NCBI GenBank assembly: GCA_007375735.1
Contig: VMEW01000001.1
Span: 11,831 to 75,830 of the forward strand
Origin: Candidatus Peregrinibacteria bacterium Greene0416_19
Lineage (GTDB): Bacteria > Patescibacteriota > Gracilibacteria > Peribacterales > Peribacteraceae
Direction: 5' to 3'
Length of the DNA: 64,000 bases
The notes under the pieces were generated by a model. The model had not been told where the DNA came from. It saw only the letters and a list, made by a program, of their open reading frames with translations, and made no database searches. Positions 28,225 through 64,000 of this stretch are shown here, piece by piece. Numbering within the stretch: position 1 is the first letter of the stretch; every line of letters starts with the position of its first letter. Made by a program: the position numbers and the translations under genes.

Positions 28225-28229
28225 CCGGG

Positions 28230-34968: not shown

Positions 34969-34974
34969 GGCTCT

Positions 34975-39634: not shown

Positions 39635-39652
39635 GCACGGCTCCTGCCGTGC
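39635..39652 (-). terminator. short hairpin after the methyltransferase gene
   Basis: GCACGGC-TCCT-GCCGTGC. It resembles one arm of the inner palindrome at 7572-7651. Confidence 0.4.
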
Positions 39653-39657
39653 GGTGC

Positions 39658-40473: not shown

Positions 40474-40479
40474 ATGGTG

Positions 40480-42610: not shown

Positions 42611-42676
42611 AGACTATTCCTCCAGATCGTACCCTGATCCTAGCCCTTGCCCCAGCCCTGACCCTACAATCCCCGC

Positions 42677-43837: not shown

Positions 43838-43889
43838 TAAATCAAGGAGGCTCCGAAGAGCCCCCTTTTCCCGACGTCAGGCGTCGGTG

Positions 43890-44219: not shown

Positions 44220-44393
44220 CGAGGCCTTCTTCGGAGTCGTCACGACATGTCTCCTTGAAAAGAGCAGATTCCCAGCCATCCATGACCGGGATTCTGCAAA
44301 AACAGGAACCCAGCATCCAGACTGGATGTATACAGTACAATTTCAATTAATTTAGTCAATACAACACTGCGTCGTCCCGGACAGCGTTTTCGT

Positions 44394-44810: not shown

Positions 44811-44869
44811 GTGGTCTGCATTCATATCTATTGTGGCATTCCAGCCCCCCCCTGCCATTTAAACAAGTA

Positions 44870-44980
44870 GCCCCCACCCCCCGACCCCCTCCCCCGACGG
44901 GGGAGGGGGAGAACGTCAGAAAGAGCATTGATATCGTCCCCCCTTCCCCCATCGGGGGAAGGGGCAGGGGGATGGGGGCT
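44870..44980. repeat. two adjacent G/C hairpin repeats
   Basis: GCCCCCACCCCCCGACCCCCTCCCCCGACGGGGGAGGGGGAG at 44870-44911, and TCCCCCCCTTCCCCCATCGGGGGAAGGGGCAGGGGGATGGGGGC at 44937-44980. Confidence 0.85.
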
Positions 44981-45030
44981 GATTGCTTCAATGGGGATGG
45001 GGGCTGAAAAACCTGTGCTACTCTTGCCCC

Positions 45031-50074: not shown

Positions 50075-50156
50075 GGGGCGTTCCACACCAAGATGGAACG
50101 GACATTTTGATGTACCCAAGCCAAGAATCTTCGTTGTTCAACAAATAAAGAACCCC

Positions 50157-50691
50157 GAGAGCGGGTTTTCTACCCGCGGATGGCGAAGGATAACGGCATG
50201 TCCCAACGCCACCCGACCCAAAACGATTGTGTCATGTTCGTGACGACGAACGTGGCCCGTCGCCTGCCCCTCTTCGCCGATCCGGCCTGTGCCCGCGAAG
50301 CAGTCGAGACACTCTATCGTGTCCAGGCGATGTATCCGTTCTTCCTCTTCGGCTTTGTCATTATGCCGGATCATTGCCATCTTCTCCTGAAGGTTCCACC
50401 ACCAGCAGAAATTTCGAGCATCATTGGTTCCTATAAGCGGGCCGTCAGCCACAATCTCGTCCGCGGTCCCATATGGCAGCCACGATTCCATATGAAGATT
50501 CCGGGCGATTGCTATGCAGCGCTGAGATACATTCACCTGAATTCCGTGAGGGCGAAATTGACCGAGAATCCGGAGGAGTACCTGTGGTCATCAGCATCGG
50601 GGCGGTGGGACGTGCAGAGCTTAGAAGGCCCGTAGGGACATGGCGCGGGTGGAATCTTGCACCTTACAACCGCGGGTAGAAAACCCGCTCT
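50157..50691. mobile_element. RAYT cassette: Y1 transposase gene flanked by inverted REPs
   Basis: GAGAGCGGGTTTTCTACCCGCGG (50157-50179) and CCGCGGGTAGAAAACCCGCTCT (50670-50691) are inverted copies bracketing the ORF. Each unit is a GCGGGT/ACCCGC hairpin. Confidence 0.85.
50180..50635 (+). CDS. REP-associated tyrosine transposase (IS200/IS605 Y1 family)
   Basis: HUH motif in VIMPDHCHLLL and catalytic Tyr context ALRYIHLNSVRAKL...EEYLWSS. Confidence 0.85.
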   Translation: MAKDNGMSQRHPTQNDCVMFVTTNVARRLPLFADPACAREAVETLYRVQAMYPFFLFGFVIMPDHCHLLLKVPPPAEISSIIGSYKRAVSHNLVRGPIWQPRFHMKIPGDCYAALRYIHLNSVRAKLTENPEEYLWSSASGRWDVQSLEGP

Positions 50692-50718
50692 TAGATATAT
50701 TTGTTATTTGATTATTTT

Positions 50719-52479
50719 TTAGTCTAATTCAAATTTCTTGAGGTATGTCTCCTGTTCCCGCAGCACCTCCGCCGGCATATCCTTCTTGTTCAGCAAGAAA
50801 CTTCCCAACACCAAATAATCCATATGCGTGTTCAGGAAACAATTCAGGGCGTCTTTCGGCGACTCGACGATGGGCTCGCCTCGCACATTGAACGATGTGT
50901 TGATGATGACGGGGCACTGCGTTTTCTCCTCGAACTTCTTGATCAGGTCGTAGTAGCGCGGGTTCTGGTCACGGCGGATGGTCTGGATTCTCGCTGAACC
51001 GTCGACGTGGGTGACAGCCGGGATCTGCTCGCGGCGGTGGGGGAGGGTGTCGGCCACGAGGAGCATGTAGGGGCTCTCGACGTTCAACGCGAACCATTCG
51101 CCGACTTTCTCCTCCAGCACCGTCGGCGCGAAGGGACGGAAGGACTCGCGGAATTTTATTTTGAGGTTCACCTTCTGCCAATTCTCCCGGTTCCGCGCGT
51201 CCGCGATGATGGAGCGGTTGCCAAGCGACCGAGGGCCGTACTCCATCCGGCCCTGGAACCATCCGATGACATTGTCTCCTTCGAGGAGAGAGGCAACGGA
51301 ATCGAAGAGTGCACCATCGTCGAGCCGCTCGTACGGAAGGTTCTGCTGCCTGAGCAAGCTCTCGATCTCCTCAGTCGAGTATTCGTTCCCCAGGAATGCA
51401 TGCTCCATCTTCTTCGTTCGTGCGCCGTTGAACACACGATGCCAGATGAGGAGTGCCCCGCCGAGTGCCCCGCCGGCGTCTCCTGACGCAGGCTGAATGA
51501 AGATGTCCTTGAAGAGGCCTGCTTTGAGGATTTTCCCATTCGCGACGCAATTGAGCGCCACGCCACCGGCAAGGCACAGGTAATCGCTCGGGCATAGCTC
51601 CTTCGCGCGCATCACGATCTTCATCATCGCCTGCTCGGTGATTTCCTGCAGCGACCGCGCCACGTCTTTGTGGAACTGCGTCAGTTCCTTCTCCGGCTTG
51701 CGGGCGGGCTGTCCGAAGAGCTTCTCGATCGCCCGACCGGTCATCGTCATGCCGTACTCGTAGTTGAAGTACTTCATGTTGAGACGGAAACTGCCGTCTT
51801 CCTTCAACTCGATGAGCTCACGCATCTCTCTCATGTACGTCGGTTGTCCGTACGGCGCGAGCCCCATTACCTTGTACTCGGCACTATTCACCTTAAATCC
51901 CAGATAATAGGTGATGGCGGAGTAGAGGAGACCGAGTGAATGCGGAAAGTGAATTTCCTCTTTCAGCGCAAGGCTCGTTCCCTCGCCCTTCCCGATCGTC
52001 GTCGTCGCCCACTCGCCCACGCCGTCGACCGTCACCACCGTCGCCTGCGGAAAGCCGGAGACGTAGTAGGCCGATGCGGCATGCGATTCGTGGTGTTGGC
52101 AGTAGTAGATCGGTCCCGTGTAGCCGAGTTCCTTCTTGATGTTCTGCGGGATCCACAACTTTTTGGTCATCCATTCTTGCATTGCTGCCTGATACGACCG
52201 CAACCCACGCGGCCATACCTTCATGTAGGTCGGGATGATGCGGTCGAAGAACTTCAGGAGCGGCTTCTCGTAGAAACCGACGGCGTCAATGTCTTTGATC
52301 GTGATGCCGGCGAACTTGAGTGCCTGCTCAACCGCGCGCTTTGGGAGCGCATCGTCATGTTTCTTCCGCGTGTACCGCTCCTCGTGCGCCGCGAAGATCA
52401 CCTCGCCGTCTTTCACCAGGCACGCGGCACTGTCATGGTAGTAGCAGGAGAGGCCGAAGATGTAGATGGGTTTGGGCAT
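50719..52479 (-). CDS. carbamoyltransferase (NodU/CmcH/SxtI family)
   Basis: 586 aa. N-terminal IFGLSCYYHDSAACLV motif and two-domain NodU length. Confidence 0.9.
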   Translation of the reverse strand: MPKPIYIFGLSCYYHDSAACLVKDGEVIFAAHEERYTRKKHDDALPKRAVEQALKFAGITIKDIDAVGFYEKPLLKFFDRIIPTYMKVWPRGLRSYQAAMQEWMTKKLWIPQNIKKELGYTGPIYYCQHHESHAASAYYVSGFPQATVVTVDGVGEWATTTIGKGEGTSLALKEEIHFPHSLGLLYSAITYYLGFKVNSAEYKVMGLAPYGQPTYMREMRELIELKEDGSFRLNMKYFNYEYGMTMTGRAIEKLFGQPARKPEKELTQFHKDVARSLQEITEQAMMKIVMRAKELCPSDYLCLAGGVALNCVANGKILKAGLFKDIFIQPASGDAGGALGGALLIWHRVFNGARTKKMEHAFLGNEYSTEEIESLLRQQNLPYERLDDGALFDSVASLLEGDNVIGWFQGRMEYGPRSLGNRSIIADARNRENWQKVNLKIKFRESFRPFAPTVLEEKVGEWFALNVESPYMLLVADTLPHRREQIPAVTHVDGSARIQTIRRDQNPRYYDLIKKFEEKTQCPVIINTSFNVRGEPIVESPKDALNCFLNTHMDYLVLGSFLLNKKDMPAEVLREQETYLKKFELD

Positions 52480-52480
52480 G

Positions 52481-52711
52481 TTAGAACGGCCGTTTCATCG
52501 TTTCGGCCGTCTCCACTGTTGCCGGGATCCAGAACGACGCTGTCGGTTGCGGACGACGGACGAGTGCCACAATCTTCATGATGATCGCGTAGATCCCGAA
52601 CCCCACGATCCACAGGATCGTCAGGATGATGAAGCTCATGAGCTTCCCGAGTGCGTGGGAGAACTCCATCCATGCATCGTAGAACCAGGAGAGGGGCGGG
52701 GGGAGGCGCAT
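52481..52711 (-). CDS. small 2-TM membrane protein in the SxtJ position
   Basis: 76 aa from ATG 52711, which overlaps the upstream TGA by 1 nt. Only 1 nt separates its stop from the carbamoyltransferase start. SxtJ identity is inferred from position and TM content only. Confidence 0.5.
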   Translation of the reverse strand: MRLPPPLSWFYDAWMEFSHALGKLMSFIILTILWIVGFGIYAIIMKIVALVRRPQPTASFWIPATVETAETMKRPF

Positions 52712-52869
52712 CAAAAAACGGTGTAAATGAACGGTGCCAGTGCCGACCCCTGTGCGAAGACGAGGATGAGGCCCAGGAGCGTGATGAGCAAGATCATCGG
52801 CAGCAGCCACCATTTCTTGCGCACCCGCATGAACTGCCAGAGCTCGGCGAAGATGGCGAGTTTGGACAT
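52711..52869 (-). CDS. DUF5989 / SxtK-like mini-protein
   Basis: 52 aa: MSKLAIFAELWQFMRVRKKWWLLPMILLITLLGLILVFAQGSALAPFIYTVF. The ELW.F...RKK.WL.P and GSA.APFIYT.F patterns match my recollection of DUF5989. Confidence 0.7.
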   Translation of the reverse strand: MSKLAIFAELWQFMRVRKKWWLLPMILLITLLGLILVFAQGSALAPFIYTVF

Positions 52870-52873: not shown

Positions 52874-54055
52874 CTATAGTAGGGATGCACACACGAATCT
52901 CGCAATCAATTCCCCCGCAACCCGGTGCCCTTCCTCATTCCAGTGTCCGGCTCCCGGACCAGTCTGCTCGAAGCCGTGGAAGGTGAGCGTCCGTTCCTCG
53001 GTCAGTTTCTGCATCATTGGTGCCAGTGTGAGCGTCGGAAAGCCGTACTTTTTACCTGTCCGTTCAATCCTCCGTTCCGGATAAAACAGATCTGTCACGC
53101 CGAGTTCCCGCGCTGCACGCTCACGCACCGCCGGATCCGGGTGGACCTGTATGCCGTTGCTCAGGGTGACGACCGCGAATCCGGCGCCGCTCTCCCGCAC
53201 GTCGATCTGCATTCCTCCCAGGATTTGCTCGGTCAATTCCCACGCTTCCCTCCATTCTCCGGTTCCCGGTTCCCGGTAGACCTCATCGTCCAGCCCGGTC
53301 TCATGGCCCGCAATGTCCGTGCCCGACCCGGTTGATGCGGTGATGGCTGCATTCCGTCCGATGATTTTCTTCGCATGGTACAGCACTTGCAGTGCACGGG
53401 AATGGTGAACCAGAGACTGGAAGAAGCGGGAGCTGAACGAGAGCTGCCGTCGGAATGCCGGATTCTCCCGGAATGAAAAATCGGGATTGAGACTCTCTCC
53501 ATCCAGCCGGAAGTATGGCTTCATCCTGTTCCCCTCGAGCGCGAAGGAGTTGTTGCGGATGTCATTCCCCGTCGTCATCGCGAGGAGCACGATGTCCGGA
53601 GCGAACTGACGCACCACTTGCCGGAAGTGAATGCGCTCCTGCGCGGTGCCGAAGCCGGATACGCCGAAGTTAAGCACTTCGATCTTCTCCCGGTTTAGGC
53701 GGTCACAGGAACGCAGTGCATGCTCCATTACCGCTGGGAATGTCTTCTCCAGCTCCACCTGTCGTGCCTCGGTATAAGAATCTCCCAGGACTGCGATCCG
53801 GACAGTTCCTTCCGGTTTCCCGACCCTGCGATCCTTGTCCCGCATGCCGTGGCGGTTGATGCGCACGTACGCTCGCCCCTCTTCCGTCTGCCACCCGGCT
53901 GCTCCGGGCCGCAGGCTGAAGCCGGTCCATTCGTCGGCGCGCGTCCAGAGGGGGTAGGAGGTGCCGGTGAGGCGGAAGGTGACTTCGACGAGGAGGAAGC
54001 CCACGAGCAACGATCCCGCAAGAAGGCCCAAGGGAACGACAACGTTCTTTCGCAC
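52874..54055 (-). CDS. membrane-anchored SGNH-like hydrolase/acyl-esterase (paralogous architecture to 47263..48273)
   Basis: GTG 54055 lies 7 nt after TAGTCT (complement of 54063-54068). TM helix followed by block I AVLGDSYTEA. The track start 54253 reads through a palindromic repeat. Confidence 0.7.
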   Translation of the reverse strand: MRKNVVVPLGLLAGSLLVGFLLVEVTFRLTGTSYPLWTRADEWTGFSLRPGAAGWQTEEGRAYVRINRHGMRDKDRRVGKPEGTVRIAVLGDSYTEARQVELEKTFPAVMEHALRSCDRLNREKIEVLNFGVSGFGTAQERIHFRQVVRQFAPDIVLLAMTTGNDIRNNSFALEGNRMKPYFRLDGESLNPDFSFRENPAFRRQLSFSSRFFQSLVHHSRALQVLYHAKKIIGRNAAITASTGSGTDIAGHETGLDDEVYREPGTGEWREAWELTEQILGGMQIDVRESGAGFAVVTLSNGIQVHPDPAVRERAARELGVTDLFYPERRIERTGKKYGFPTLTLAPMMQKLTEERTLTFHGFEQTGPGAGHWNEEGHRVAGELIARFVCASLL

Positions 54056-54082
54056 GAGTGTGAGACTACCATTTCTAGGCCC

Positions 54083-54253
54083 ATGCCCCCACCCCCGACC
54101 CCTCCCCCTCCCTCCGGTCGGGAGAGGGGAGAGACGTCTGAGGTGTATTCCCACAGCTTCACAAAGATTATGGAGAGAAGCAGGATGCCTTCTTCCTGAA
54201 TGGAGCTCCCCTCTCCCGACGATAGGAGGGGGAGGGGTCGGGGGTGGGGGCAT
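54083..54253. repeat. 171-bp palindromic element (ATGCCCCC-terminus family) in a divergent promoter region
   Basis: Perfect 29-bp arms ATGCCCCCACCCCCGACCCCTCCCCCTCC (54083-54111) / 54225-54253. Inner 14-bp arms 54118-54131 / 54206-54219. Confidence 0.9.
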
Positions 54254-55238: not shown

Positions 55239-56213
55239 TCATAGGCTGACCAGCCACTGCCTCCTCCGTACGCGTGATGCCATAAGTGGAAACGAGAGAG
55301 GTGTTCGCCGATCCTTCGTCCGGACGGATCCGAGTCCCGCTTCGAATCCGTGCTCCTGCTTCAGCCATCGCGAGAGTTGTCGGAGTTCACGGATGTATGG
55401 TGCATAGATGTGTGTAGCGATCAAACTACTTCCTTCCATGTGGTAGGTCGCAAGGCCTGTGTCGTAGAGCCAGGGTTTGAGCAGCTTCAGCCCATGGAAA
55501 TGGTAGAAGACAAGCGGCCGCCCGTCGACGAGAACGTTCGTCCCGTCCCATGCATACCGGTGGGTATCCAGATTCCACGGTGCAACGTTGAGGCCGGGAT
55601 GCGTTGCAATCTTCACGTTCCGGAAGAGCCGCGGCACCTGCTCCAGATACTTCTGGTTCGAGAATTTCCCATCCTCCACCCGGTCATGGCACCACTCGAT
55701 GCACCGGTCACACCACCACTGCACGGCCTTCGCGCCTTCGGGGGTTTTCGTGGCTGCGCAGAAGCCGGCATTGAAAAGCCCATTCTGGAGCTTCGAGTGG
55801 AGATGCTCGGGGAACCCGTGCGGAGTGAGGAGTATCTCACTTGCGCCGATCTCCCGAGCGATGGCATCGGGAGAGGAGAAGAACCACAGGTCACCGTCGA
55901 GGTAGGTGAGGAGCGTGCCTTCCGACAGACGGTCCAGCACCGAGCGGAGCAGAAAGGGTTTGCTGGTCGCGATGTACTCGTACGACCCCCGCTGGGGTTT
56001 GACGGCCGGGAGCTCCGGATAGGCTGTCTCCACCTCCCGCAGGCTGAAGGCGCTCACGGACGGAATCTTCATGCGGTCAAACAGAGCGAAGGATGCATCG
56101 TCCGTGCACAGGATCCAGAGCCTGAAAGACGTTCCCTGCCGCTCCAGCGAGCGGATGAGCGCCATCGTCCGCAGGACGAAGTGCGCGTCGATCATGGTGC
56201 AGAATTCGAGCAC
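55239..56213 (-). CDS. putative nucleotide-diphospho-sugar transferase (GT-A-like, family not recognised)
   Basis: YLDGDLWFF (DxD) after a Rossmann-like N-terminal half. GTG 56213 lies 6 nt after TACCAT (complement of 56220-56225). Confidence 0.6.
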   Translation of the reverse strand: MLEFCTMIDAHFVLRTMALIRSLERQGTSFRLWILCTDDASFALFDRMKIPSVSAFSLREVETAYPELPAVKPQRGSYEYIATSKPFLLRSVLDRLSEGTLLTYLDGDLWFFSSPDAIAREIGASEILLTPHGFPEHLHSKLQNGLFNAGFCAATKTPEGAKAVQWWCDRCIEWCHDRVEDGKFSNQKYLEQVPRLFRNVKIATHPGLNVAPWNLDTHRYAWDGTNVLVDGRPLVFYHFHGLKLLKPWLYDTGLATYHMEGSSLIATHIYAPYIRELRQLSRWLKQEHGFEAGLGSVRTKDRRTPLSFPLMASRVRRRQWLVSL

Positions 56214-56289: not shown

Positions 56290-58131
56290 ATGTGCGGCAT
56301 AGCGGGATACACCGGCATCGATGAGCGGGAGTACCTCCAAAAAATGACCGACCGGCTGTTCCACCGCGGCCCGGATGACGGCGGGGAATACCATTCCGCG
56401 GAAGATTGCGTGCATCTTGGCATGCGTCGACTGGCGATTGTGGATATCAAGGATGGCGTGCAGCCCATGACGACGGCCGACGGCCGGTTCTGCATCGTGT
56501 ATAACGGTGAAATATTCAATGCGCCGGAACTGCGGAAAGAATTGGAATCCCAGGGCAGAGCATTCCGCACCGACCACTCGGATACCGAGGTCATCCTCCA
56601 GCTCTATGCGCGCGACGGCGCCATGGCACCCGGCCGGCTCAACGGCATGTTCGCATTCGCCATCTACGATCGCGATCGGCGCACCCTCTTCTGCGCACGG
56701 GATCAGGCCGGCATCAAGCCATTCTTCTACAGTGTCGGTCCGGACGGACGGTTCTCCTTTGCATCAGAAATCAAAGCTTTGTTGTTGCTTCCCTGGGTCG
56801 AGCGAGCGATCGACCGCCAGGCGGTGGCGGACTTCCTCAGCTTCCAGGCCATACCTGCGCCGCGAACTATCTACAGCGCCATCCGCAAGCTGCCGGCGGG
56901 TGCCAGCCTGATCTACTCCCTTGCCGATCACTCCGTTTCCGTTCTGCCATACTGGACACCGCCGGTGGACCTGTACCGCCGTGATCCCCTGCGCGCCGAT
57001 CCACGCGAGTATCCACGCATCATCCGGGGCGCCTTCGAGCGGGCGGTGAATCGTTGGTCCACGAGCGACGTACCGATTGCCTATTCGCTCTCCGGCGGTA
57101 TCGATTCCTCCGCCGTCGTCGGTGCGAGCGCACATATTCTGAAAGGTCCGCTCGCGACGTACACGCTCGGCTTCACCGATAGCCCGGATCTGGATGAGCG
57201 CGCGCCTGCGCGGGAGGTGGCAGCGATGTGGAACACGGATCACCATGAAATCCTGCTGACGGAGCAGGATCTTCTCGGCTCGCTCGATGCGATGGCGGAT
57301 GCGCTCGATGAGCCGTACGCCGGAGGCCTGCCCTCCTGGTTCGTGTTTCGGGAGATGGGCAGGCACGTGAAAGTGGCCATGACCGGCACGGGTGGCGACG
57401 AGCTCTTCGGGAATTACGGGAAATGGCTGGCGCACGAGTGGGGCGGCAAGCGCCTCACGCGCATCCGCACGTTCCTCCGTAACGGCGGCAGCATGCGCCA
57501 CCTCCTCGCCTCTCCCCACGGAGCCCTCCACTACCCGTACTTCACCGATGCCGCCAAACAATCGCTCCTCACCCCGGCATTCGCATCGGGACTCTCCCCC
57601 TCCACAGCATTGCTCGAACACTTGTGGCGCGCGAGCCCCGATGCTGATCCCAGGAGCAGGGTTGCCTTCATGGACTTCCAACTGCAGCTGCCCGAGGAAT
57701 TTCTCTTCATGACGGACAGGTTCTCCATGGCGCACTCAGTGGAAGCCCGCACACCGCTCCTCGACCGGGAACTCGTCGAGACGGTGTTCCGCATCCCCCC
57801 GGAAGCGCGTACGACGAGCGGATCCCTCAAGCGGCTCTTCATCGCCGCCGTCGCCGACCTGCTTCCGCCGGCTGTCCTCTCCTCGCGCAAGCGGGGGTTC
57901 GTCCTGCCCGCCGGCCGGTGGCTCCGGGGGCGGCTCCGGCCGCTCGTGGAGGATCTGTGCAATCCTTCTTCCCTGCGGACGCAGGGCATTTTTCAGGAGT
58001 CCGTCTTCGAGCAGATCGTCCGTCCGCATCTCTCGGGCGAACGAAACCTCGACTGGCAACTCTGGACGATCCTGAGTTTCCAGCTGTGGTACGACCACTT
58101 CATTTCTCCGTCGCGGGTTTCCGTGCGTTGA
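56290..58131 (+). CDS. asparagine synthase (glutamine-hydrolysing)-like amidotransferase
   Basis: MCGIAG N-terminus (Cys2 nucleophile) and PP-loop SLSGGIDSS. 613 aa from ATG 56290. Confidence 0.9.
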   Translation: MCGIAGYTGIDEREYLQKMTDRLFHRGPDDGGEYHSAEDCVHLGMRRLAIVDIKDGVQPMTTADGRFCIVYNGEIFNAPELRKELESQGRAFRTDHSDTEVILQLYARDGAMAPGRLNGMFAFAIYDRDRRTLFCARDQAGIKPFFYSVGPDGRFSFASEIKALLLLPWVERAIDRQAVADFLSFQAIPAPRTIYSAIRKLPAGASLIYSLADHSVSVLPYWTPPVDLYRRDPLRADPREYPRIIRGAFERAVNRWSTSDVPIAYSLSGGIDSSAVVGASAHILKGPLATYTLGFTDSPDLDERAPAREVAAMWNTDHHEILLTEQDLLGSLDAMADALDEPYAGGLPSWFVFREMGRHVKVAMTGTGGDELFGNYGKWLAHEWGGKRLTRIRTFLRNGGSMRHLLASPHGALHYPYFTDAAKQSLLTPAFASGLSPSTALLEHLWRASPDADPRSRVAFMDFQLQLPEEFLFMTDRFSMAHSVEARTPLLDRELVETVFRIPPEARTTSGSLKRLFIAAVADLLPPAVLSSRKRGFVLPAGRWLRGRLRPLVEDLCNPSSLRTQGIFQESVFEQIVRPHLSGERNLDWQLWTILSFQLWYDHFISPSRVSVR

Positions 58132-59119
58132 GGAGGATGCCGTTCCCGCCGCGGCGGATGGACACGTCCGCCAGGTCCGTGCGGCTGCACCATTCCCGCA
58201 CGGACGCGATGGTTTGCGGAAAATCATACCGGGCGGAGAGGGCGTCGAAGGTATCGAGGATCGCCCACTGCACCAGCTGCTCCCGGCTGAGGGGAAGGAT
58301 GCCGGTGTAGTTCCAGCACGGCACGAGGAGCGGGACGATGCGCCGCAGCACCGGGATCCGCCGCATGGCATTGTCGATGGGGAACCACAGCGGAACGTAC
58401 CACTCAGCGATCCCGCGGAGGAGCGATGGAGGGAGGCGCTTCGTGAGCCAGCGGTAGAGGAATTTCGACTGCCATCGGTCGGGCAGCGGCCGCCGCCTCG
58501 ATGGTACCCAGCGGCGGTACACGTCCGCTGCGATCTTCCCGCCCGGCCTGAGCGGGGGCAGGAGGCAGCGGAACGCCCGCTCGGGGTCCGGCGTGTGCTG
58601 GAGCACACCGTAGCAGAAGACGTACTCCACCGAAGACGGGGCGATCGGCAGACGGAACACATCGGCCTGTAGAATGTGCAGTCGCGGGTGCGGCCAGTGA
58701 TTCGCGGCGCAGGCGTCGACGGCGCTGCTGTAGTCCATGGCAATCACCTCCGCGCCGGCTGCGAGCAGGATTTCTGTGAAGCGCCCCGCGCCGCACCCCA
58801 CTTCCAATACCCTCTTCCCTGCAAGTTCATCCGTCCGCCATCCCGTTCCCTCATGGAAGCGGTCACGGCTGATGTGCGTGCCATTGCGGCTGTCGAGCTG
58901 CACGAGCCGGTAGCGGTTCCACTGCAGGCCGAAATTTTCCGTGTATCCGTCATCCTGCACGAAGCGGGGGATGCCGTTGCAGATGGCGTAAGTCTTCCCA
59001 TTCTCTCCGTGCAGCCCCCCCTCCATCACTTCCGCGCCTTCCTGCAGGGTCATCTGCTCAAGCGAGAGCGGGCCGCCGGTGCCGGGATCGCGGAGGAACG
59101 GGAGGAGGGAACGGTGCAT
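58100..59119 (-). CDS. SAM-dependent methyltransferase with N-terminal Trm112-like zinc-ribbon-type segment
   Basis: LLPFLRDPGTGGPL...CNGIPRFV followed by motif I VLEVGCGAGRFT. Start ATG 59119, 4 nt after the upstream stop. Confidence 0.8.
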   Translation of the reverse strand: MHRSLLPFLRDPGTGGPLSLEQMTLQEGAEVMEGGLHGENGKTYAICNGIPRFVQDDGYTENFGLQWNRYRLVQLDSRNGTHISRDRFHEGTGWRTDELAGKRVLEVGCGAGRFTEILLAAGAEVIAMDYSSAVDACAANHWPHPRLHILQADVFRLPIAPSSVEYVFCYGVLQHTPDPERAFRCLLPPLRPGGKIAADVYRRWVPSRRRPLPDRWQSKFLYRWLTKRLPPSLLRGIAEWYVPLWFPIDNAMRRIPVLRRIVPLLVPCWNYTGILPLSREQLVQWAILDTFDALSARYDFPQTIASVREWCSRTDLADVSIRRGGNGILLNARKPATEK

Positions 59120-59123
59120 GGCG

Positions 59124-60764
59124 TCAGTGGGATGCGAGGTAATCCTCGTCCTGCGATCGCAGTACCCAGTCGCGGAAGGCGCGCAAGTCCGGCGCCGCGG
59201 CAAGATCGGGGAGCGATGCTGCGCGGAGGATCACGTTCTGATCGAGGGGATGGCCGAGTTTGCTGAACGATGACTGCACCATCTCCCACGTATGGAACGT
59301 GAGGGGACGGAGCCGGAAGAGCGCGTGCGCATGACGGCGGGCGAGCGTGGTTTCCTCCGGCGTCAGGAGCGGAATATCCTCGATACGCCGAAGCTTTTCC
59401 AGATATTCCTGCGATGAAGCAGAATCATTCGTGAAGCCCAGGCCCGAATAGCGCCCCGTGCCGGCCGTCAGGACCGGGATGCCGAAGCACGGTGCCTCGA
59501 TGCCGATGGTGCCGCGCACCGTGATGCAGTAGTCGGTGATCGCGAAGAAGCTGTAGGTGCTGATGTCGGTGTCCGGCGCAACGACCGTGATGTGGGGCGG
59601 CAGCGTAGCGAAATTGGCGTCGAGCGCGATGACATCGCGCGGCTGGGCCGTAATCCCGAGCTGTTTCATCTTCCATACGTAATCAGGGTGCAGCTTGATC
59701 ACCCAGTTGACCCGGTCGTTGCCGCAGGCGACCTTCACCGTCTCGATGAGCCATTTCTCGTAGTCTTCAAACAGGTTCGTGCCGTAGAAGAACGTCGCAT
59801 CCCAGAGGACGTGTGAAAAGATGACGACCGTCTTCTTCGCGGGGTCCAGACCGAGCTGCGACCGCACCGCGTCTGGGTTCTTCAACTTCTTCCCCTCCAA
59901 GAGGAATTTCCGGTTGAACCACGTGCCCTCGGCGTAGGACCGGCGGAGTTCGGCTATGAACGATTCCTCTGTCTCTGCGGTCCATGGCAAGCGCTTGATC
60001 CGCTCCCAGGCGGACGGCGATACCGATGCGGCATGCACGTCGGCGTTTTCCAACGTGTATCGCTTGAGAAACATCGAATCGCGCGTATGTGCGTGCACGT
60101 ACTGGATGCAGGGACAGCCGTGCGCGAGCGCGGCGTCGAACACTTCGGCGTAGGGGGAGTACCCCTTTTCCAGAAATAATACGACGTCGGTATGCTCTGC
60201 ATCGAAGAACGCGTGCGCGGCTTCCGCAGCCTGAAATGAGCGCGGGAGCAGCCCCCGCAGAAGCTGCTGTGCCTCCGGATCGTCGAACGCAACACTCCCC
60301 TGGCGCAGCCTGCGGACGATGGTCGAGAGCGTGTGCTTTCCCACCCGCACGCCACGATGCGTGCAGCGCATGAATTCGTGGAACGTCGATGAGCGCAGGG
60401 CGGCTTCCAGACGATCCTGTGGGACCCGCGAGGCATGCTGATCCATGAGATCATCGAGGAACACGAATTGATCGATGCCCATTGACCGGAAGTACAGTTG
60501 TGCCCGTTTGTTCGTCCGGTCGGTCAGCACCGTGATTGCGGATCCATCCAACTCAAGCGCCTTGCCGAACACGCCTTCCATCTTCACCTGAGCGACCCAG
60601 TCGGTCAGGCTCACGATCAGGATCTTCTTCCCATTTCCAGCGGACCGGGATTGGTGGAGAAAGAAGACTTTCCATCGGAAGGACAGATAATCCCACAGCA
60701 CCGCCAGGTCGTCCGCCAGGCGCCGCCGGTCGAACAGCCGGCCGAAACGCCGGATGACGCTCAT
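59124..60764 (-). CDS. GT-B-like protein resembling capsule-synthesis (KpsS/KpsC, Capsule_synth) enzymes
   Basis: 546 aa. KKILIVSL N-terminal domain. C-terminal domain with VIFSHVLWD, WVIKLHPDY and ITVRGTIGIEAPCFGIPVL. Its ATG overlaps the neuA stop (ATGA). Family assignment from motif memory only. Confidence 0.5.
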   Translation of the reverse strand: MSVIRRFGRLFDRRRLADDLAVLWDYLSFRWKVFFLHQSRSAGNGKKILIVSLTDWVAQVKMEGVFGKALELDGSAITVLTDRTNKRAQLYFRSMGIDQFVFLDDLMDQHASRVPQDRLEAALRSSTFHEFMRCTHRGVRVGKHTLSTIVRRLRQGSVAFDDPEAQQLLRGLLPRSFQAAEAAHAFFDAEHTDVVLFLEKGYSPYAEVFDAALAHGCPCIQYVHAHTRDSMFLKRYTLENADVHAASVSPSAWERIKRLPWTAETEESFIAELRRSYAEGTWFNRKFLLEGKKLKNPDAVRSQLGLDPAKKTVVIFSHVLWDATFFYGTNLFEDYEKWLIETVKVACGNDRVNWVIKLHPDYVWKMKQLGITAQPRDVIALDANFATLPPHITVVAPDTDISTYSFFAITDYCITVRGTIGIEAPCFGIPVLTAGTGRYSGLGFTNDSASSQEYLEKLRRIEDIPLLTPEETTLARRHAHALFRLRPLTFHTWEMVQSSFSKLGHPLDQNVILRAASLPDLAAAPDLRAFRDWVLRSQDEDYLASH

Positions 60765-61447
60765 CGTTGCCGCAGAAGGAACTCCGCGTAGGCCAGGTCG
60801 TCCGGGCCGTCGATATCGACCGAACTGCGCGCGTCCATCACGAAGGGGATCGAGCGGTCTCCGTAGAGCGTTCCCGCTTCGATCACTGTCCGCCGCACGA
60901 TCAAGATCGCCGGACCGTTGCGCGCGTAGAATCGTTCCTTGTCCTGTCTCCGGAGGACCAGGGGGCCCTCGGAGAGCGGCGCGAGCAGTCCGTCCTTCAG
61001 TTGCATGAGCGAAGTCGGGCTGAAGCGGTGCGGCACCTCCGTCACGCTCACGACGGTGTCGACGTTCTTCTTTTCAAAGAGAGTGAGTGCCGCATCGATG
61101 TGTGCCGTCGTCCGTAGCGGAGAGGTCGGTTGTAGGAGAGCGATTGCATCGGGAACGTACCCCTCGATCCGATCGAGTTCACTCAGAATGTGCTGGAGGA
61201 CAGGCAGGATGGGCGTTGCGTCTTCGGCAAGATTCGCCGGTCGCAGGAAAGGGCATGGCACCCCGAGTGATGCGCCCAGCGCCGCAATTGCCGGATCATC
61301 GGTCGAGAGGATGGCGCGTCCGAGCACGCTCCCAGCCGCAGCCTCGCACGTGTGGGCCATGAGCGGCTTCTCGCCGAGCGGTGCCACGTTCTTATTGGGG
61401 ATGCCCTTCGAGCCGCTGCGCGCGGGGATGATGCCCAGGATTTCCAT
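60761..61447 (-). CDS. neuA: acylneuraminate (nonulosonate) cytidylyltransferase
   Basis: GIIPARSGSKGIPNKN N-terminal motif. 228 aa. Confidence 0.85.
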   Translation of the reverse strand: MEILGIIPARSGSKGIPNKNVAPLGEKPLMAHTCEAAAGSVLGRAILSTDDPAIAALGASLGVPCPFLRPANLAEDATPILPVLQHILSELDRIEGYVPDAIALLQPTSPLRTTAHIDAALTLFEKKNVDTVVSVTEVPHRFSPTSLMQLKDGLLAPLSEGPLVLRRQDKERFYARNGPAILIVRRTVIEAGTLYGDRSIPFVMDARSSVDIDGPDDLAYAEFLLRQR

Positions 61448-61453
61448 AGTCGG

Positions 61454-62608
61454 TCAGTAGGTCAGTTGCTTCTGTACGGAGAGAGTCGCCGTGGAGAGGA
61501 TGTCCGCGATCTTTTCGCCAGCCGTTCCGTCCCCGTAGAGTGTGTCCGGCTCGTACGGGCCGTGCGCCAGCTGCTTTTTCACCGCCGAGACGATCGCCGC
61601 GTGATCGTGACCGGCATCCAGGATATTCGCTCCCCGGTCACGCCCGGTCTGGCGTGTGCCGACGTTCACGACCGGCACCCCCAGGAAGCTCCCCTCGCGG
61701 ATGGCGGCGCTGGAGTTGCCCACCATGCAGGCGCAGTGGCGCATGATGGGGATGAAGGTTTCCACCGGCAGATTCTTGTAGAAGCGTATGTAGCTGTCGT
61801 CTTTGTGTTCGCGGAAGATGCGGATGCCCTGCGCAATGTCTTCCGATCCGGCGTCGGCATTGGGCCAGAAGAAGATGGTGGGGATGTGTAACTCCTCGAT
61901 TGCCTTGAGCGTTTCTTCAATCTGGTCGCGGCCCTGCCCGTACTCGGTGGTGACCGGGTGCTGCATCACGAGCAGGTAGGGCTTGCGGAAGTCGATACCT
62001 CCTCCCACCCCCTCCTGAAGGAGCAGCGGCAGTGACGCCGGATCGGAGTGCAGCCGCGCCACCTCCGCCACCAGGTCCATCCGCGGGCAGCCCACCACGT
62101 GCACCCGCTTCGGATCCTCCCCCATGCGGATGATGCGATCGGCGGCCCGGTCGTTGGATGGGAAGTGCAACTGGGCCAGCTTGGTGACCGCATGTCGGAT
62201 GCTCTCGTCGATGGTGCCGCTCACCTCGCCCCCCATCGTGTGGGCGAGGGGGATGTTCATGTACGCCGCGGCCACCGCGGTCGCCATCGTCTCGAAGCGG
62301 TCGCCCACCGTCACCACCGCGTCCGGCCGCAAGCGGTCGAATACCCGCGCGAGCTCGATCAGCCCTAGCCCGGTCGACTGCGCCATCGTCAGCGGTGTCT
62401 CGCCCTCGATCAGCATGTGCACCCGCTCGTCGGGGGCAAAGCCGTCTTTCTCCATGAATTTGACCACCGATCCATACCGGTCGAGCAGGGCCGATGCGCC
62501 AACCACCACCTGGAGCGCGAGATCCGGATGCGCCTGTACCGCCCGCATCACGCTCTTGATGGAGCTGTAGTTTGCCCGTGAGCCGACGACGACGCAGATT
62601 GTGCGCAT
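61454..62608 (-). CDS. neuC: UDP-N-acetylglucosamine 2-epimerase (hydrolysing) type
   Basis: MRTICVVVGSRANYSSIKSV N-terminus, HTMGGEVSGTIDE and GNSSAAIREG motifs. Confidence 0.85.
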   Translation of the reverse strand: MRTICVVVGSRANYSSIKSVMRAVQAHPDLALQVVVGASALLDRYGSVVKFMEKDGFAPDERVHMLIEGETPLTMAQSTGLGLIELARVFDRLRPDAVVTVGDRFETMATAVAAAYMNIPLAHTMGGEVSGTIDESIRHAVTKLAQLHFPSNDRAADRIIRMGEDPKRVHVVGCPRMDLVAEVARLHSDPASLPLLLQEGVGGGIDFRKPYLLVMQHPVTTEYGQGRDQIEETLKAIEELHIPTIFFWPNADAGSEDIAQGIRIFREHKDDSYIRFYKNLPVETFIPIMRHCACMVGNSSAAIREGSFLGVPVVNVGTRQTGRDRGANILDAGHDHAAIVSAVKKQLAHGPYEPDTLYGDGTAGEKIADILSTATLSVQKQLTY

Positions 62609-62619
62609 AGGGAATTGGC

Positions 62620-63627
62620 TCAGGAGAACTTTTGGAGATCAGATGGTATCATGACAGTATCAGCCGGGATGTCCCGTGTTGCCCTCGTACCGATCACGTC
62701 CGAAATCCTGGCTGCTGGGATCCCGGTGCCTGGCTTCTTGATGCCGAGCATGGCCCGTGTGACGGTTGTGCCTTTCTTGATGGGAACGAGTGCAGCCACG
62801 CTCTTCTCAAATGTCTGCTTCATATTCTTGAATCGCGATGCATCGGATTTGTCCACGGGATGATGCAGCATCGCCTCCGCCGCGCGGATGACCTCGCACA
62901 TCTGGCGAAACTCAGCCGGCTCGAGCGAATGCTTCGCATCGCTGCCGTACATGTGCCGACTGAAGGTGAGGTGTTTCTCAATGACGCTCGCGCCCAAGGT
63001 CACCGCCGCGATCGGCGCCGCGAGTGTCATCGTGTGGTCGGACAGGCCGACGGGGCATTGGTACCGCTCGCGCATTTCCGCAAGCAGGTTCAGGCCCACC
63101 TGCTCCGGGGGGCACGGATACTCGGAGGTGCACTGCAGCACGGTCAGATCGTTGCCGCCGCGACGGATCGTCTCCACCGCACGATCGAGCTCTTCCCATG
63201 AACTCATGCCCGAGGAGAGGATGACCGGCTTGCCCGTCGCTGCGATCTTTTCAAGTAAGGGGAGATTCGTGACCTCGCCCGACGGGACTTTGTAGCGCGC
63301 AACCCCGACCTTCTCGAGCAGATCGACCGCCTCTTCGCTGAAGGGGGAAGACAGGAACTCGATGCCTGTTCCGTCAGCATGCTCTTTCAGTTTCTTCCAT
63401 TGTTCGAGCATGAAGCCGGTCCGCCTGAAGTACTCGTAGCGCGACTCGTCTTTGAAGTAGGGGGACGACGGCGCGTCCTTCGTTGTTTCCGCATCGGCGA
63501 TGTGCGTCTGGAACTTGACCGCGTCGGCGCCCACGTCCTTCGCCAGCTCGATCAATCTCTTGGCGTTTCCGAAGCTCCCGTCGTGGACGGAGCCGATCTC
63601 GGCGATGATGAGGACGCGGGTGCTCAT
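62620..63627 (-). CDS. neuB: N-acetylneuraminate (nonulosonate) synthase with SAF domain
   Basis: IIAEIGSVHDGS and AVKFQTH motifs, with a C-terminal SAF-like segment (GTGIPA...IG). Confidence 0.9.
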   Translation of the reverse strand: MSTRVLIIAEIGSVHDGSFGNAKRLIELAKDVGADAVKFQTHIADAETTKDAPSSPYFKDESRYEYFRRTGFMLEQWKKLKEHADGTGIEFLSSPFSEEAVDLLEKVGVARYKVPSGEVTNLPLLEKIAATGKPVILSSGMSSWEELDRAVETIRRGGNDLTVLQCTSEYPCPPEQVGLNLLAEMRERYQCPVGLSDHTMTLAAPIAAVTLGASVIEKHLTFSRHMYGSDAKHSLEPAEFRQMCEVIRAAEAMLHHPVDKSDASRFKNMKQTFEKSVAALVPIKKGTTVTRAMLGIKKPGTGIPAARISDVIGTRATRDIPADTVMIPSDLQKFS

Positions 63628-63724
63628 TGGATGCTATTGAAGCATGTTTGCGGCTGAACGGCCATACCCACGTCGTCCTTTCACCGCTTCTGGTTGCCGG
63701 TCTTTGGCGGTATGATGGTCGTCA

Positions 63725-64000
63725 ATGCGGAAGCTGGTCATCATCGGCTCGGGCGCCCAGAGCATCGACATTCTGGAGACGGTTCATGCCATCAATGAGC
63801 GACAGCCCACATACGCTCTCACCGGTTTCCTGGATGACGACGTGTCGCTGAGGGGAAAAGAGATATTCGGGCTGCCCATACTCGGCCCCATTGCGGACGG
63901 AGCATCTCTGCCTTCGGACACCTTCTTCGTCAGCGGAATCGGGTTATTGTCCCTCCTCGCCCGCCGGCCCGCCATCATTGCGCGCACCGGCGTCAGCCCC
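63725..64000 (+). CDS. NeuD/PglD-like sugar acetyltransferase, 5' partial (runs off the window)
   Basis: Not in the ORF track because there is no stop. Hand translation gives MRKLVIIGSGAQSIDILETVHAINERQPTYALTGFLDDD..GKEIFGLPILGP, typical of the NeuD/PglD N-terminal domain. ATG lies 8 nt after TATGAT 63711-63716. Confidence 0.6.
   Translation, partial: MRKLVIIGSGAQSIDILETVHAINERQPTYALTGFLDDDVSLRGKEIFGLPILGPIADGASLPSDTFFVSGIGLLSLLARRPAIIARTGVSP

Follow-up and report, generated by a model that had tools for sequence, protein, structure and literature searches.

At one end of the window (the whole 64,000-nucleotide stretch of DNA that was analyzed), five genes form a tight minus-strand operon comprising neuB, neuC, neuA, a 546-aa open reading frame that we call X546, and a SAM methyltransferase gene. 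The features considered here are as follows.

62620-63627, minus strand: neuB, nonulosonate synthase of the Neu/Leg type, 335 aa (PF03102, E 2e-82, plus an SAF domain)
61454-62608, minus strand: neuC, hydrolyzing UDP-HexNAc 2-epimerase of the NeuC/LegG type, 384 aa (TIGR03568, 401 bits, cut-off 235.9; PF02350, E 1e-74)
60761-61447, minus strand: neuA, CMP-nonulosonate synthetase, 228 aa (PF02348, E 3e-16)
59124-60764, minus strand: X546, KpsC-like GT-B protein, putative CMP-nonulosonate glycosyltransferase, 546 aa (PF05159, E 1.4e-3)
58100-59119, minus strand: class I SAM-dependent methyltransferase, 339 aa, last in the operon (Methyltransf_11, E 1e-18)
56290-58131, plus strand: AsnB-type glutamine-dependent amidotransferase, 613 aa, with an MCGIAG N terminus (Asn_synthase, E 2e-77, plus GATase_7)
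63725-64000, plus strand: NeuD/PglB/VioB-family hexapeptide acetyltransferase, 5' part, 91 aa in the window (PglD_N, E 1.6e-4)
44983-46167: DegT gene

Gene junctions were taken straight from the nucleotide sequence. The gaps are 11 nt from neuB to neuC and 6 nt from neuC to neuA, and the X546 start overlaps the neuA stop as ATGA; an earlier note on this DNA had described both the contiguous neuB-neuC-neuA order and the overlap, and both can be read in the sequence. Since the methyltransferase ATG lies 4 nt past the X546 stop, we take this protein to be 339 aa long, and an alternative 367-aa open reading frame starting at TTG was dropped. The partial NeuD/PglD-like acetyltransferase gene that the note had placed divergent from neuB leaves the window at its end; at full length on the parent contig (216 aa), its product scores 185 bits against TIGR03570 (NeuD/PglB/VioB; cut-off 160.8). 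The DegT gene was likewise found elsewhere in the window, as the note had said.

The neuB product scores higher against the NeuB profile TIGR03569 (376 bits) than against PseI (279 bits), and it is not classed as a KDO-8-P or other aldolase-type synthase, an outcome that the note had considered. The top NCBIfam match of the neuA product is PseF, at 131 bits, under the PseF cut-off. Large trees do not resolve Neu from Leg types of NeuB (PMC8208679), so NeuB phylogeny could not settle which of the two is present. A sugar of the Neu5Ac or legionaminic type, not pseudaminic acid, is our best reading.

Remote relationship of X546 to KpsC

X546 belongs to a family of 5,686 clusters (50% identity, E <= 1e-3) whose sole annotation is "hypothetical." Its members come chiefly from uncultured environmental phyla and include Peribacteria, Nitrospira, Planctomycetota, Chloroflexota, and Acidobacteriota, among others. 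The motifs VIFSHVLWD, WVIKLHPDY, and GTIGIEAPCFGIPVL, which had prompted the earlier comparison with the Capsule_synth family, are present in the translation, and the likeness itself holds up in profile searches. PF05159 is matched by residues 352 to 457 (E 1.4e-3), with 18.6 bits that narrowly miss the gathering score of 20. Of 40 relatives, 34 match the same Pfam family (best E 1e-6). In hhalign comparisons, an X546 profile built from 243 sequences aligned to E. coli KpsC-N with a probability of 90% (E 1.7e-6) and to KpsC-C with a probability of 70% (E 3.9e-5).

These alignments pair TVVIFSHVLWD of X546 with IVLVVDQTFND of KpsC and IKLHPD with VKVHPD. D322 of the X546 HxxxD motif falls on the KpsC nucleophile D160 (QxxxD), and H359 falls on H194 of the KpsC HP motif. 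In KpsC, Asp160 of QXXXD is an experimentally proven nucleophile and the HP-motif His is the general acid (PMC10148158). D322, H359, and P360 are each invariant in the X546 family (243/243), E423 is present in 242 of the 243 sequences, and position 199 is E or D in 238. In the two proteins the motifs come in the same order and with the same spacing, namely a beta-strand leading into [Q/H]xxxD, ~34 to 37 aa, K-x-H-P-D, T/S-x-x-G-x-E, and G..Y.G.G.T.D. Judged by these sequence comparisons, X546 and KpsC (GT107) are remotely homologous. X546 differs from the KpsC proteins of E. coli and Thermosulfurimonas (GT107, PF05159) in that identity is about 25% over only 134 residues, the nucleophile motif is HxxxD rather than QxxxD, and the N-terminal half is much larger. 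KpsC is also linked to kdsB and kps export genes, whereas X546 is linked to neuBCA.

Searches against other families gave no significant match. By sequence, the single weak PDB match was a 2-epimerase (E 0.51), and similarity to the KpsS profile was not significant (E 0.33). Among the sialyltransferase families that the note had proposed for comparison, Pfam searches at E <= 0.1 with X546 and 39 relatives matched none of GT38, GT42, GT52, or GT80, nor did they match TagB-like or Maf families, and no unrelated well-characterized family was matched. Epimerase_2 and Glyco_tran_28_C were also unmatched in X546 and the relatives searched.

The AlphaFold2 (AF2) model of X546 (pLDDT 89.7, pTM 0.88) has two Rossmann-like halves, of which the N-terminal one spans ~300 aa and carries a long helical insert. 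By TM-score, the top Foldseek matches are KpsC (6mgb, TMt 0.50) and WbbB (5fa1, TMq 0.32), and the WbbB structures 5fa1 and 8csf match with E values of about 4e-6 and TMq of 0.31 to 0.32. When matches are ranked by Foldseek E value, generic GT-B enzymes (UDP-GlcNAc 2-epimerases, including NeuC, and GT1 enzymes) precede KpsC, and the X546 fold alone is therefore not specific to the Kdo-transferase clan. The retaining Kdo transferases WbbB (GT99 module) and KrkA (GT140) share with X546 the clan-level fold and the Asp-adduct mechanism that we propose below, but they have no detectable sequence similarity to it and their donor is Kdo.

Conserved gene neighborhoods and domain fusions

Nonulosonate genes accompany X546 homologues across the family. 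Of the 67 loci whose upstream sequence extends to 4 kb or more, 65 carry a NeuA, NeuB, or NeuC gene within 10 kb, and the other 2 have none within that distance. All three are upstream on the same strand in 43 of the 67, and NeuA lies no more than 400 nt upstream in 31/73 loci. The synthases at these loci are of the NeuB/LegI type and the epimerases of the NeuC type; PseI was never seen. The recurrent neighbors are GT4s, SDRs, methyltransferases, and a sulfotransferase, and among them we found neither a nonulosonate transferase of any other known type nor a kdsA/kdsB-like cluster. In the lipopolysaccharide (LPS) cluster of Legionella adelaidensis, a distant family member lies three genes past an acylneuraminate cytidylyltransferase gene. 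Also, like KpsC, WbbB, and KrkA, some X546 relatives are built of several modules, namely X546 with GT4, GT2, or a methyltransferase, and a tandem X546 pair (P0241).

The link between X546 and the methyltransferase is supported by gene fusions (P0120 and P0343), and at 12 or more further loci an orthologue of the methyltransferase (43 to 56% identity) is encoded downstream of X546. The enzyme had been called a Trm112-type methyltransferase; the methyltransferase part of this assignment stands, while the Trm112 label is weakly supported. NF038101 matches at E 2.9e-4 with 20.9 bits where the cut-off is 77, the N terminus is weakly Trm112-like and cysteine-free, and Pfam Trm112p has no match in the N-terminal 80 aa at E <= 0.1. 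In the PDB, the enzyme comes closest to generic methyltransferases of class I.

The AsnB-type amidotransferase belongs to the same conserved module. In the window, its gene is convergent with the operon and shares the last 32 nt of its 3' end with the methyltransferase gene; in many relatives it follows X546 immediately and in the same orientation, and the AsnB cluster occurs at 32/81 loci with a median offset of +223 nt. The protein scores 403 bits against TIGR01536 (cut-off 267), and its top PDB match is the hydroxyamidotransferase 7ylz (E 6e-49). The earlier note's discussion did not include this gene.

Proposed function of X546 and alternative readings

We consider it fairly likely that X546 is a cytoplasmic glycosyltransferase that transfers a CMP-activated nonulosonate of the Neu or Leg type, and not Pse, to a surface glycan, likely with retention via an Asp322 adduct, and that the methyltransferase and AsnB probably modify this residue or its neighbor. 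X546 would thus probably be the missing enzyme for attaching the nine-carbon acid sugar to the surface glycan. What we observed here is the order and coupling of the genes, a remote homology in which invariant catalytic positions align, a fold, family-wide synteny, and domain fusions; from these we infer the donor, the acceptor, the stereochemical outcome, and what the methyltransferase and the amidotransferase do. NeuC, NeuB, and NeuA would act in turn to make the CMP-activated nine-carbon acid, and X546, with its modified GT-B fold, would move the sugar onto the growing glycan. By homology with KpsC, WbbB, KpsS1, and KrkA, the reaction is most likely a double displacement, in which the departing CMP phosphate would be protonated by His359 (HP motif) and Asp322 (HxxxD) would attack the sugar at C2, so that the nonulosonate becomes covalently bound to the Asp. 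The acceptor hydroxyl would then be activated by a base, and such a double displacement would leave the donor with its anomeric configuration retained. Within the LEKGY motif, Glu199 is possibly this general base; hhalign in global mode did not place it on KpsC Glu66, and a Legionella relative has His at this position. The general-base position varies among retaining Kdo-transferase families (PMC12887879).

KpsC itself uses a CMP-activated 2-keto-3-deoxy acid sugar, and we propose the same kind of donor for X546. A functional precedent is KpsS1 (GT118) of Acinetobacter baumannii, a relative of KpsS (PF05159 family) and an established retaining Pse5Ac7Ac transferase with a CMP donor (PMC12887879). 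KpsS1 and KpsS are about 30% identical. X546 has no such similarity to KpsS, and its loci point to a donor other than CMP-Pse. The note had suggested a new type of nonulosonate transferase. The transferase reading is upheld by the KpsC homology, the GT-B model, and the neuBCA linkage, but "new type" was overstated; given KpsS1, X546 is probably a new family of a known kind rather than a new principle. The inverting sialyltransferases of GT38, GT42, GT52, and GT80 and the TagB-like Pse/Leg transferases of Tannerella forsythia also use CMP-nonulosonate donors, and the HP motif of X546 occurs in GT38/52/80 and the Tannerella enzymes as well (PMC5420450; PMC10148158). Retention is expected for X546, in contrast to the inverting bacterial sialyltransferases.

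It is very unlikely that X546 is a true beta-Kdo transferase of the KpsC/KpsS kind that builds a Kdo linker or cap beside neu genes by chance. Kdo transferases are its only detectable sequence relatives of known function, and its fold resembles KpsC and WbbB. However, X546 is coupled to neuA and not kdsB, and the family keeps company with NeuB/C/A rather than with kdsA/kdsB-like genes. The short stretch of identity and the different N-terminal half also argue against this reading, and the residues with which KpsC reads the Kdo side chain are not kept (at position 361, 119 of the 243 sequences have D and 90 have A). A GT-B nucleotide-sugar enzyme other than a transferase, such as a PseG- or NeuC-like hydrolase or epimerase, or a scaffold modifying the CMP-sugar, might be expected within a biosynthetic operon, and both the Foldseek E-value ranking and the weak PDB match lean toward epimerases. 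This is nonetheless improbable, as a bona fide NeuC above its model cut-off is already in the operon, the Pfam models Epimerase_2 and Glyco_tran_28_C are unmatched, the invariant positions fall on the Asp and His used in catalysis by transferases that form a glycosyl-enzyme, and GT2 and GT4 fusions are typical of glycan-assembly enzymes.

Unlikely, in our view, is a nonulosonate transferase that terminates or caps chains together with the methyltransferase (compare the WbbB Kdo cap and the WbdD methyl cap), or a homopolymerase, instead of one adding an internal residue. Fusion to and adjacency with methyltransferases recur, the tandem P0241 recalls KpsC, and the WbbB GT99 module ends O-antigen chains with Kdo (PMC12887879). 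Yet beside the operon in the window we identified neither an ABC transporter nor a carbohydrate-binding module, the orthologous methyltransferase occurs at only about 15/81 loci, and one cluster accounts for the tandem form.

Under the preferred reading, transfer to a growing glycan, the methyltransferase and AsnB would serve as a recurrent accessory module, probably for methylation or carboxyl amidation of the transferred residue or a neighbor; O-methylation of the product, specifically, is a guess. There is a parallel in PtmG and PtmH of Campylobacter jejuni and ORF8 of Legionella pneumophila, which modify CMP-legionaminic acid by acetamidino formation and N-methylation (PMC3766260). In those systems, too, a methyltransferase gene, with or without an amidotransferase gene, adjoins the nonulosonate genes. 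The amidotransferase beside X546 is a full AsnB-type enzyme, glutaminase domain included, and not of the WbuX/PtmG type. The host of the operon, with its sialic-acid-type sugar pathway, is an uncultured groundwater-type Peribacteria/CPR bacterium.

Composition of the operon and nature of the sugar

Five closely packed genes on the minus strand span positions 58100-63627, with an amidotransferase gene converging on them and an acetyltransferase gene diverging from them.

Genes of the nonulosonic-acid operon, its flanks and the DegT gene of the same island
62620-63627, minus: neuB (PF03102, E 2e-82, with SAF)
61454-62608, minus: neuC (TIGR03568, 401 bits; cut-off 236)
60761-61447, minus: neuA (PF02348, E 3e-16)
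59124-60764, minus: X546, 546-aa ORF, the putative KpsC-like CMP-nonulosonate glycosyltransferase (PF05159 below threshold)
58100-59119, minus: SAM methyltransferase, 339 aa (ATG 4 nt past the X546 stop)
56290-58131, plus: AsnB-type glutamine amidotransferase (start MCGIAG; TIGR01536, 403 bits; cut-off 267)
63725-64000, plus: NeuD/PglD-type acetyltransferase, partial, divergent (PglD_N, E 1.6e-4)
44983-46167: DegT

The earlier note had described neuB, neuC and neuA in tandem on the minus strand, with the neuA stop overlapping the start of the 546-aa protein. All three genes were found, and the junctions, read directly, agree with that description exactly: the first two gaps measure 11 and 6 nt, and the neuA stop and X546 start share an ATGA. 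The partial acetyltransferase divergent from neuB and the DegT gene elsewhere in the island, both named in the same note, were also recovered. Because an ATG lies 4 nt behind the X546 stop, the methyltransferase was taken as 339 aa and a 367-aa ORF starting at TTG was dismissed; its 3' end overlaps that of the convergent AsnB gene by 32 nt. On the parent metagenomic contig of 230,958 bp, the region past position 64000 encodes the complete 216-aa acetyltransferase (TIGR03570, 185 bits, above cut-off), a 461-aa SGNH/AlgX-like protein, a second DegT protein (PseC model 253 bits and LegC 171 bits, both under cut-off), a weakly GalE-like SDR and a 450-aa protein with no family match.

The cassette combines a NeuB-type synthase, a hydrolysing 2-epimerase and a CMP-synthetase, as in pathways of the neuraminic/legionaminic (Neu/Leg) type. 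The product is predicted not to be pseudaminic (Pse), because the synthase favors NeuB (TIGR03569, 376 bits; cut-off 400) over PseI (279 bits) and the epimerase is of the NeuC rather than the PseG type; six divergent cassettes from other phyla likewise showed NeuB scoring above PseI and a NeuC-type epimerase. NeuB typing was dropped as a way of telling Neu from Leg, as the curated NCBIfam models cover both Neu5Ac- and legionaminic-type enzymes and a phylogeny of 13,941 sequences did not separate NeuB from LegI (PMC8208679). With curated models covering both, the earlier view that the sugar could be of either type, sequence alone not deciding, still holds.

Several genes point to a legionaminic-type sugar: the NeuD/PglD-family acetyltransferase divergent from neuB, the two DegT genes nearby, of which the 44983-46167 copy scores 333 bits on the LegC-family model TIGR04181 (cut-off 420), and weak LegB-like SDRs (best LegB score 135 bits; cut-off 475). 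NeuD is also part of classical sialic-acid operons, and among 23 loci with a NeuB sharing 55-72% identity with the window's (flanks of up to 10 kb), a DegT match occurred in one and a NeuD match in none, both of which point to Neu5Ac. Since the LegC-like DegT adjoins a GT2 gene, and the island has two ArnT-like GT-C genes in other places, it may belong instead to an Arn-like lipid-carrier module, possibly occupying 38140-46915. We lean slightly toward a Neu5Ac-type product.

Genes of the possible Arn-like module, and the second GT-C gene
44983-46167: DegT (LegC-family 333 bits, ArnB 228 bits)
46127-46915: GT2, overlapping DegT
40480-41595: SDR with weak ArnA/UXS similarity
39658-40473: methyltransferase
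38140-39627: ArnT/PMT_2-type GT-C
28986-30365: second GT-C

Sequence motifs and predicted fold of X546

The C-terminal half of X546 had also been likened to the Capsule_synth family (PF05159). That resemblance is borne out by its relatives, 34 of 40 of which match PF05159 at E<=0.1 (best 1e-6), but X546 itself reaches only 18.6 bits (E 1.4e-3), under the gathering score of 20 bits, and a precomputed PF05159 match exists for just 7 of 120 homologues. Given these sub-threshold scores, we regard X546 as a remote relative of PF05159 rather than a member at the curated threshold. Beyond PF05159, 39 relatives searched at E<=0.1 gave just three single, unrelated matches at chance level. X546 had no NCBIfam match and, at E<=0.01, no Pfam match besides PF05159; inverting sialyltransferases (GT38/42/52/80), TagB-like proteins and Maf were thus all without a match. 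Nothing usable was obtained against all PDB chains, with either X546 (best E 0.51) or a 40-sequence profile (zero matches).

For direct comparison, KpsC and KpsS of E. coli CFT073 were taken from the kps locus. The X546 HMM gave only marginal hmmsearch scores against them, and a significant score to KpsC came solely from hhalign with a 243-sequence profile. The first KpsC module was aligned with 90% probability (E 1.7e-6; X546 312-463 on KpsC 150-284) and the second with 70% probability (E 3.9e-5). Similarity to a 19-sequence KpsS profile was not significant (E 0.33); that profile holds close enterobacterial KpsS only (at least 63% identity), without KpsS1 or diverse GT107 members.

The hhalign pairings place TVVIFSH318VLWD322 on IVLVVDQ156TFND160, IKLH359P360D361 on VKVH194P195D196, and TVRGTIGIE423...GTGRYSGLGFT on VVTSQYGFE...GQPWYAGWGLT; H318-V-L-W-D322 also pairs with QVEDD of the second module. 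The KpsC nucleophile, on which the covalent Kdo adduct forms, is Asp160 of the QXXXD motif, and the HP-motif His acts as its general acid (PMC10148158). D322, H359, P360, T415 and G418 are kept in 243/243 sequences of the X546 family, E423 in 242 and H318 in 236. The HP motif is thus invariant. The QXXXD motif, with its catalytic Asp, is present in a variant form, HxxxD, since D322 is invariant but the first residue is His where KpsC has Gln. As a side observation, the text of PMC10148158 gives the general acid of KpsC as 'His94'; in CFT073 KpsC (26743-28770 of the fetched kps locus, L084) the HP motif lies at His194-Pro195, directly ahead of Asp196, a residue likewise named in that paper, and 'His94' probably arose as a misprint or in conversion.

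In the N-terminal half, LE199KGY of X546 resembles by eye LE66DGF of KpsC, where Glu66 is the general base, and FEEGY of KpsS; an acidic residue, E or D, occupies position 199 in 238 of 243 family sequences. The local mode of hhalign stops short of this region, and the global mode pairs KpsC Glu66 with a different strand.

By the two residues behind HP, the family divides into HPD[YL] and HPAN forms (position 361 is D in 119 and A in 90 of 243 sequences; residues 361-362 lie at about 59679-59684 of the window, minus strand). HPAN occurred almost only with a NeuB type 33-39% identical to that of the window (14 versus 2 among loci L004-L083, which are phylogenetically non-independent), a correlation that we consider suggestive. 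As the equivalent KpsC residue, Asp196, binds the O8 hydroxyl of Kdo, position 361 may be a determinant of donor specificity.

An AlphaFold2 model of X546 built on 40 homologues (pLDDT 89.7, pTM 0.88) has two alpha/beta halves, the first with a long helical insert, and Foldseek against the PDB returned GT-B proteins throughout. The best E-values belonged to UDP-GlcNAc 2-epimerases and GT1 enzymes, and the best TM-scores to KpsC 6mgb (TMt 0.50, rmsd 7.4) and WbbB 5fa1 (TMq 0.32). The WbbB structures 5fa1 and 8csf gave E about 4e-6 and TMq 0.31-0.32, with generic GT-B proteins scoring alike; KrkA was absent from the top 50.

Family distribution, gene neighborhoods and accessory enzymes

A word-indexed search with X546 gave more than 1,084 homologues, and every named one was a 'hypothetical protein.' An exhaustive profile search returned, as clusters at 50% identity, 5,686 (E<=1e-3), 3,258 (E<=1e-10) and 940 (E<=1e-30). 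GTDB species representatives that carry the family, nearly all of them recorded as MAGs, belong to Peribacteria, Nitrospira, Planctomycetota, Chloroflexota, Vicinamibacterales, Omnitrophota, Gaiellales, Desulfobacterota and others; the nearest homologues of X546 among them come from Peribacteria MAGs.

The sole member found in a cultured organism, WP_058461785.1 of Legionella adelaidensis NCTC12735, is distant (118 bits against the family HMM). This 543-aa 'hypothetical protein' (NZ_LR134429.1; 2573-4204 of the fetched locus L085) is encoded three genes behind an acylneuraminate cytidylyltransferase gene, within an LPS cluster that also holds Wzz, an O-antigen ligase, DegT and a PglF-like dehydratase. 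The record is labeled a plasmid; it looks like a chromosome fragment, because tilS, accA, rnhB and birA are present.

Multi-domain relatives of X546 were also seen. A C-terminal module is GT4 in P0050, GT2 in P0360 and a methyltransferase in P0120 and P0343, whereas P0241 (1161 aa) is a tandem double X546 module; P0300 and P0244 are further multi-domain relatives, and some forms carry N-terminal extensions of unknown type. Such architectures are typical of the capsule and O-antigen assembly enzymes KpsC, WbbB and KrkA (PMC12887879).

The proteins of the window served to score 80 loci, fetched with at most 10 kb of flanking sequence. Among the 67 with at least 4 kb upstream, 65 had a NeuA, NeuB or NeuC gene within 10 kb, and in 43 all three lay upstream on the same strand. 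In 31/73 loci, no more than 400 nt separated the end of NeuA from the start of X546. Neighboring ORFs were also clustered de novo over 81 loci.

Recurrent neighbors of X546 (81 loci)
NeuC cluster: 54 loci
NeuB cluster: 54 loci
NeuA cluster: 50 loci
SDR cluster: 45 loci
Three GT4 clusters: 44, 28 and 26 loci
AsnB amidotransferase cluster: 32 loci (same strand, median offset +223 nt)
Several methyltransferase clusters, the window's orthologue among them: 15 loci
Sulfotransferase cluster: 11 loci

These recurrent neighbors included neither a kdsB-type cluster nor a nonulosonate transferase of any other known kind. Instead of the kps/kdsB context of GT107, the window and 65/67 related loci show neuB-neuC-neuA.

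The methyltransferase is a generic class I enzyme; in the PDB it comes closest to methyltransferases of phosphoethanolamine, ubiquinone and small molecules (E about 1e-10). The earlier note had called it Trm112-type, and a match to NF038101 Trm112_arch (E 2.9e-4, 20.9 bits; cut-off 77) lends weak support to a Trm112-like N-terminus; the usual cysteines of the Trm112 zinc ribbon are missing from this segment, and the N-terminal 80 aa had no Pfam match at E<=0.1. Support for a functional tie with X546 comes from translational proximity; in addition, at least 12 loci have an orthologue downstream of X546, and two architectures fuse the two proteins.

The AsnB protein appears from its sequence to be a complete glutamine-dependent enzyme of the carboxylate-amidating type (best PDB match the hydroxyamidotransferase 7ylz, E 6e-49). 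In many phyla AsnB is the next gene after X546 and has the same orientation, frequently with the methyltransferase orthologue behind it (L005, L029, L031, L032, L047 and L061-L080 have AsnB after X546), whereas in the window X546 is followed by the methyltransferase and AsnB is inverted. One possibility is that AsnB amidates a sugar carboxylate; the methyltransferase might act on a hydroxyl or on an amidine. Sugar-modifying methyltransferases are described from nonulosonate loci, namely PtmH of C. jejuni and ORF8 of L. pneumophila (PMC3766260). We did not adopt a PtmG/PtmH analogy for the AsnB-methyltransferase pair, because AsnB falls outside the acetamidino-forming WbuX/PtmG type.

Proposed mechanism and the surrounding glycan island

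In the mechanism that we propose, NeuC, NeuB and NeuA would make a CMP-activated Neu/Leg-type nonulosonate, which the C-terminal Rossmann half of X546 would bind through the HP motif and the T415/G418/E423 block. His359 would protonate the leaving CMP phosphate as a glycosyl-enzyme intermediate formed on Asp322, and the acceptor would be activated by a base in the N-terminal half, for which Glu199 in LEKGY is a candidate. With this second step following the Asp322 adduct, configuration would be retained. The operon, the KpsC homology, the invariant residues, the fold, the synteny and the fusions are observations of this analysis, from which the donor, the acceptor, retention and the roles of the neighboring genes are inferred.

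The Asp-adduct ulosonic-acid transferases comprise GT99 (WbbB), GT107 (KpsC/KpsS), GT118 (KpsS1, Pse) and GT140 (KrkA) (PMC12887879). X546 would work like these enzymes, yet it falls outside each of the families testable here. It scores under the PF05159 threshold, lacks KpsS similarity, and has a different first motif residue, N-terminal half and donor pathway. From GT118, whose KpsS1 is about 30% identical to KpsS, it is set apart by having neither close KpsS kinship, as judged with the 19-sequence KpsS profile, nor the context of a Pse pathway. X546 would be a fifth branch of this small double-displacement clan.

Because X546 keeps the retaining Asp-adduct machinery of Kdo and Pse transferases on a Neu/Leg-type pathway, its glycosides would retain the configuration of the CMP donor, and retention in the neuraminic/legionaminic series would mean beta-linked residues. 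We know of no beta-linked Neu5Ac in natural glycoconjugates. If X546 is retaining with Neu/Leg donors, the stereochemistry of the product would itself be unusual, which adds to its interest, and together with the coupled methyltransferase and AsnB it could yield a nonulosonate cap, methylated and/or amidated, at the surface of an episymbiont.

Nonulosonate transfer by an enzyme of the KpsS/PF05159 kind is not a new idea. A family this large on Neu/Leg cassettes in environmental phyla, including CPR bacteria, appears undescribed in the literature searched, and our searches found no paper on the X546 family or on nonulosonates in Peribacteria. The enzymes that attach nonulosonic acids are known for a handful of pathogens only. 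The acids themselves have been found by chemical analysis in wastewater biofilms and in environmental bacteria of a very wide range (PMC8157484, PMC10483923). An unnamed family of at least 940 clusters (E<=1e-30) beside neuBCA across phyla is therefore a concrete candidate for the missing transferase, and one that can be cloned. The most far-reaching reading is that X546 founds a new and very large GT family that serves uncultured environmental bacteria as their principal nonulosonate ('sialyl-') transferase, retaining, with beta-linked products and possibly a methylated or amidated cap; taken whole, we think it unlikely to be correct. The phyla concerned would be CPR/Peribacteria, Nitrospira, Planctomycetota, Chloroflexota and Acidobacteriota. 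X546 would also serve as a metagenome marker gene for sialylated surfaces, including those of CPR bacteria, whose cell-surface chemistry is so far essentially unknown.

Judged by the relatives of its SufS and by the nearest X546 homologues, the window comes from a CPR bacterium akin to Peribacteria/Peregrinibacteria, with a GC content of about 60%. Glycan genes fill roughly 19-64 kb of the window, and ~45 kb of glycan biosynthesis is a heavy commitment for a lineage with small genomes. The island holds many GT4 and GT2 genes, one GT8, the two ArnT-like GT-C genes, a carbamoyltransferase and an SLH-domain protein. ORFs at 15183-17999 (plus, 938 aa) and 34960-36585 (plus, 541 aa) had no Pfam match at E<=1e-3.

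Other genes of the window
13794-15026: SufS (best named relatives, 62-66% identity, all Candidatus Peregrinibacteria/Peribacteria)
48536-50074: SLH-domain protein with Germane domain
50180-50635: IS200-type Y1 transposase
50719-52479: NodU/CmcH-type carbamoyltransferase, followed by small ORFs

The last three of these genes and the small ORFs take up 48536-52813; on the parent contig, one small ORF behind the carbamoyltransferase is a DUF5989 protein. The minus-strand gene at 52874-54253 encodes an SGNH/GDSL-like protein of 393-459 aa with a Pro/Gly-rich N-terminus and no confident family. Likewise without a confident family is the 318-324-aa protein at 55239-56213 (minus), which contains a DxD-like segment, YLDGDLWFF; four other loci encode weakly similar proteins (28-32% identity) at 1-2 kb downstream of X546.
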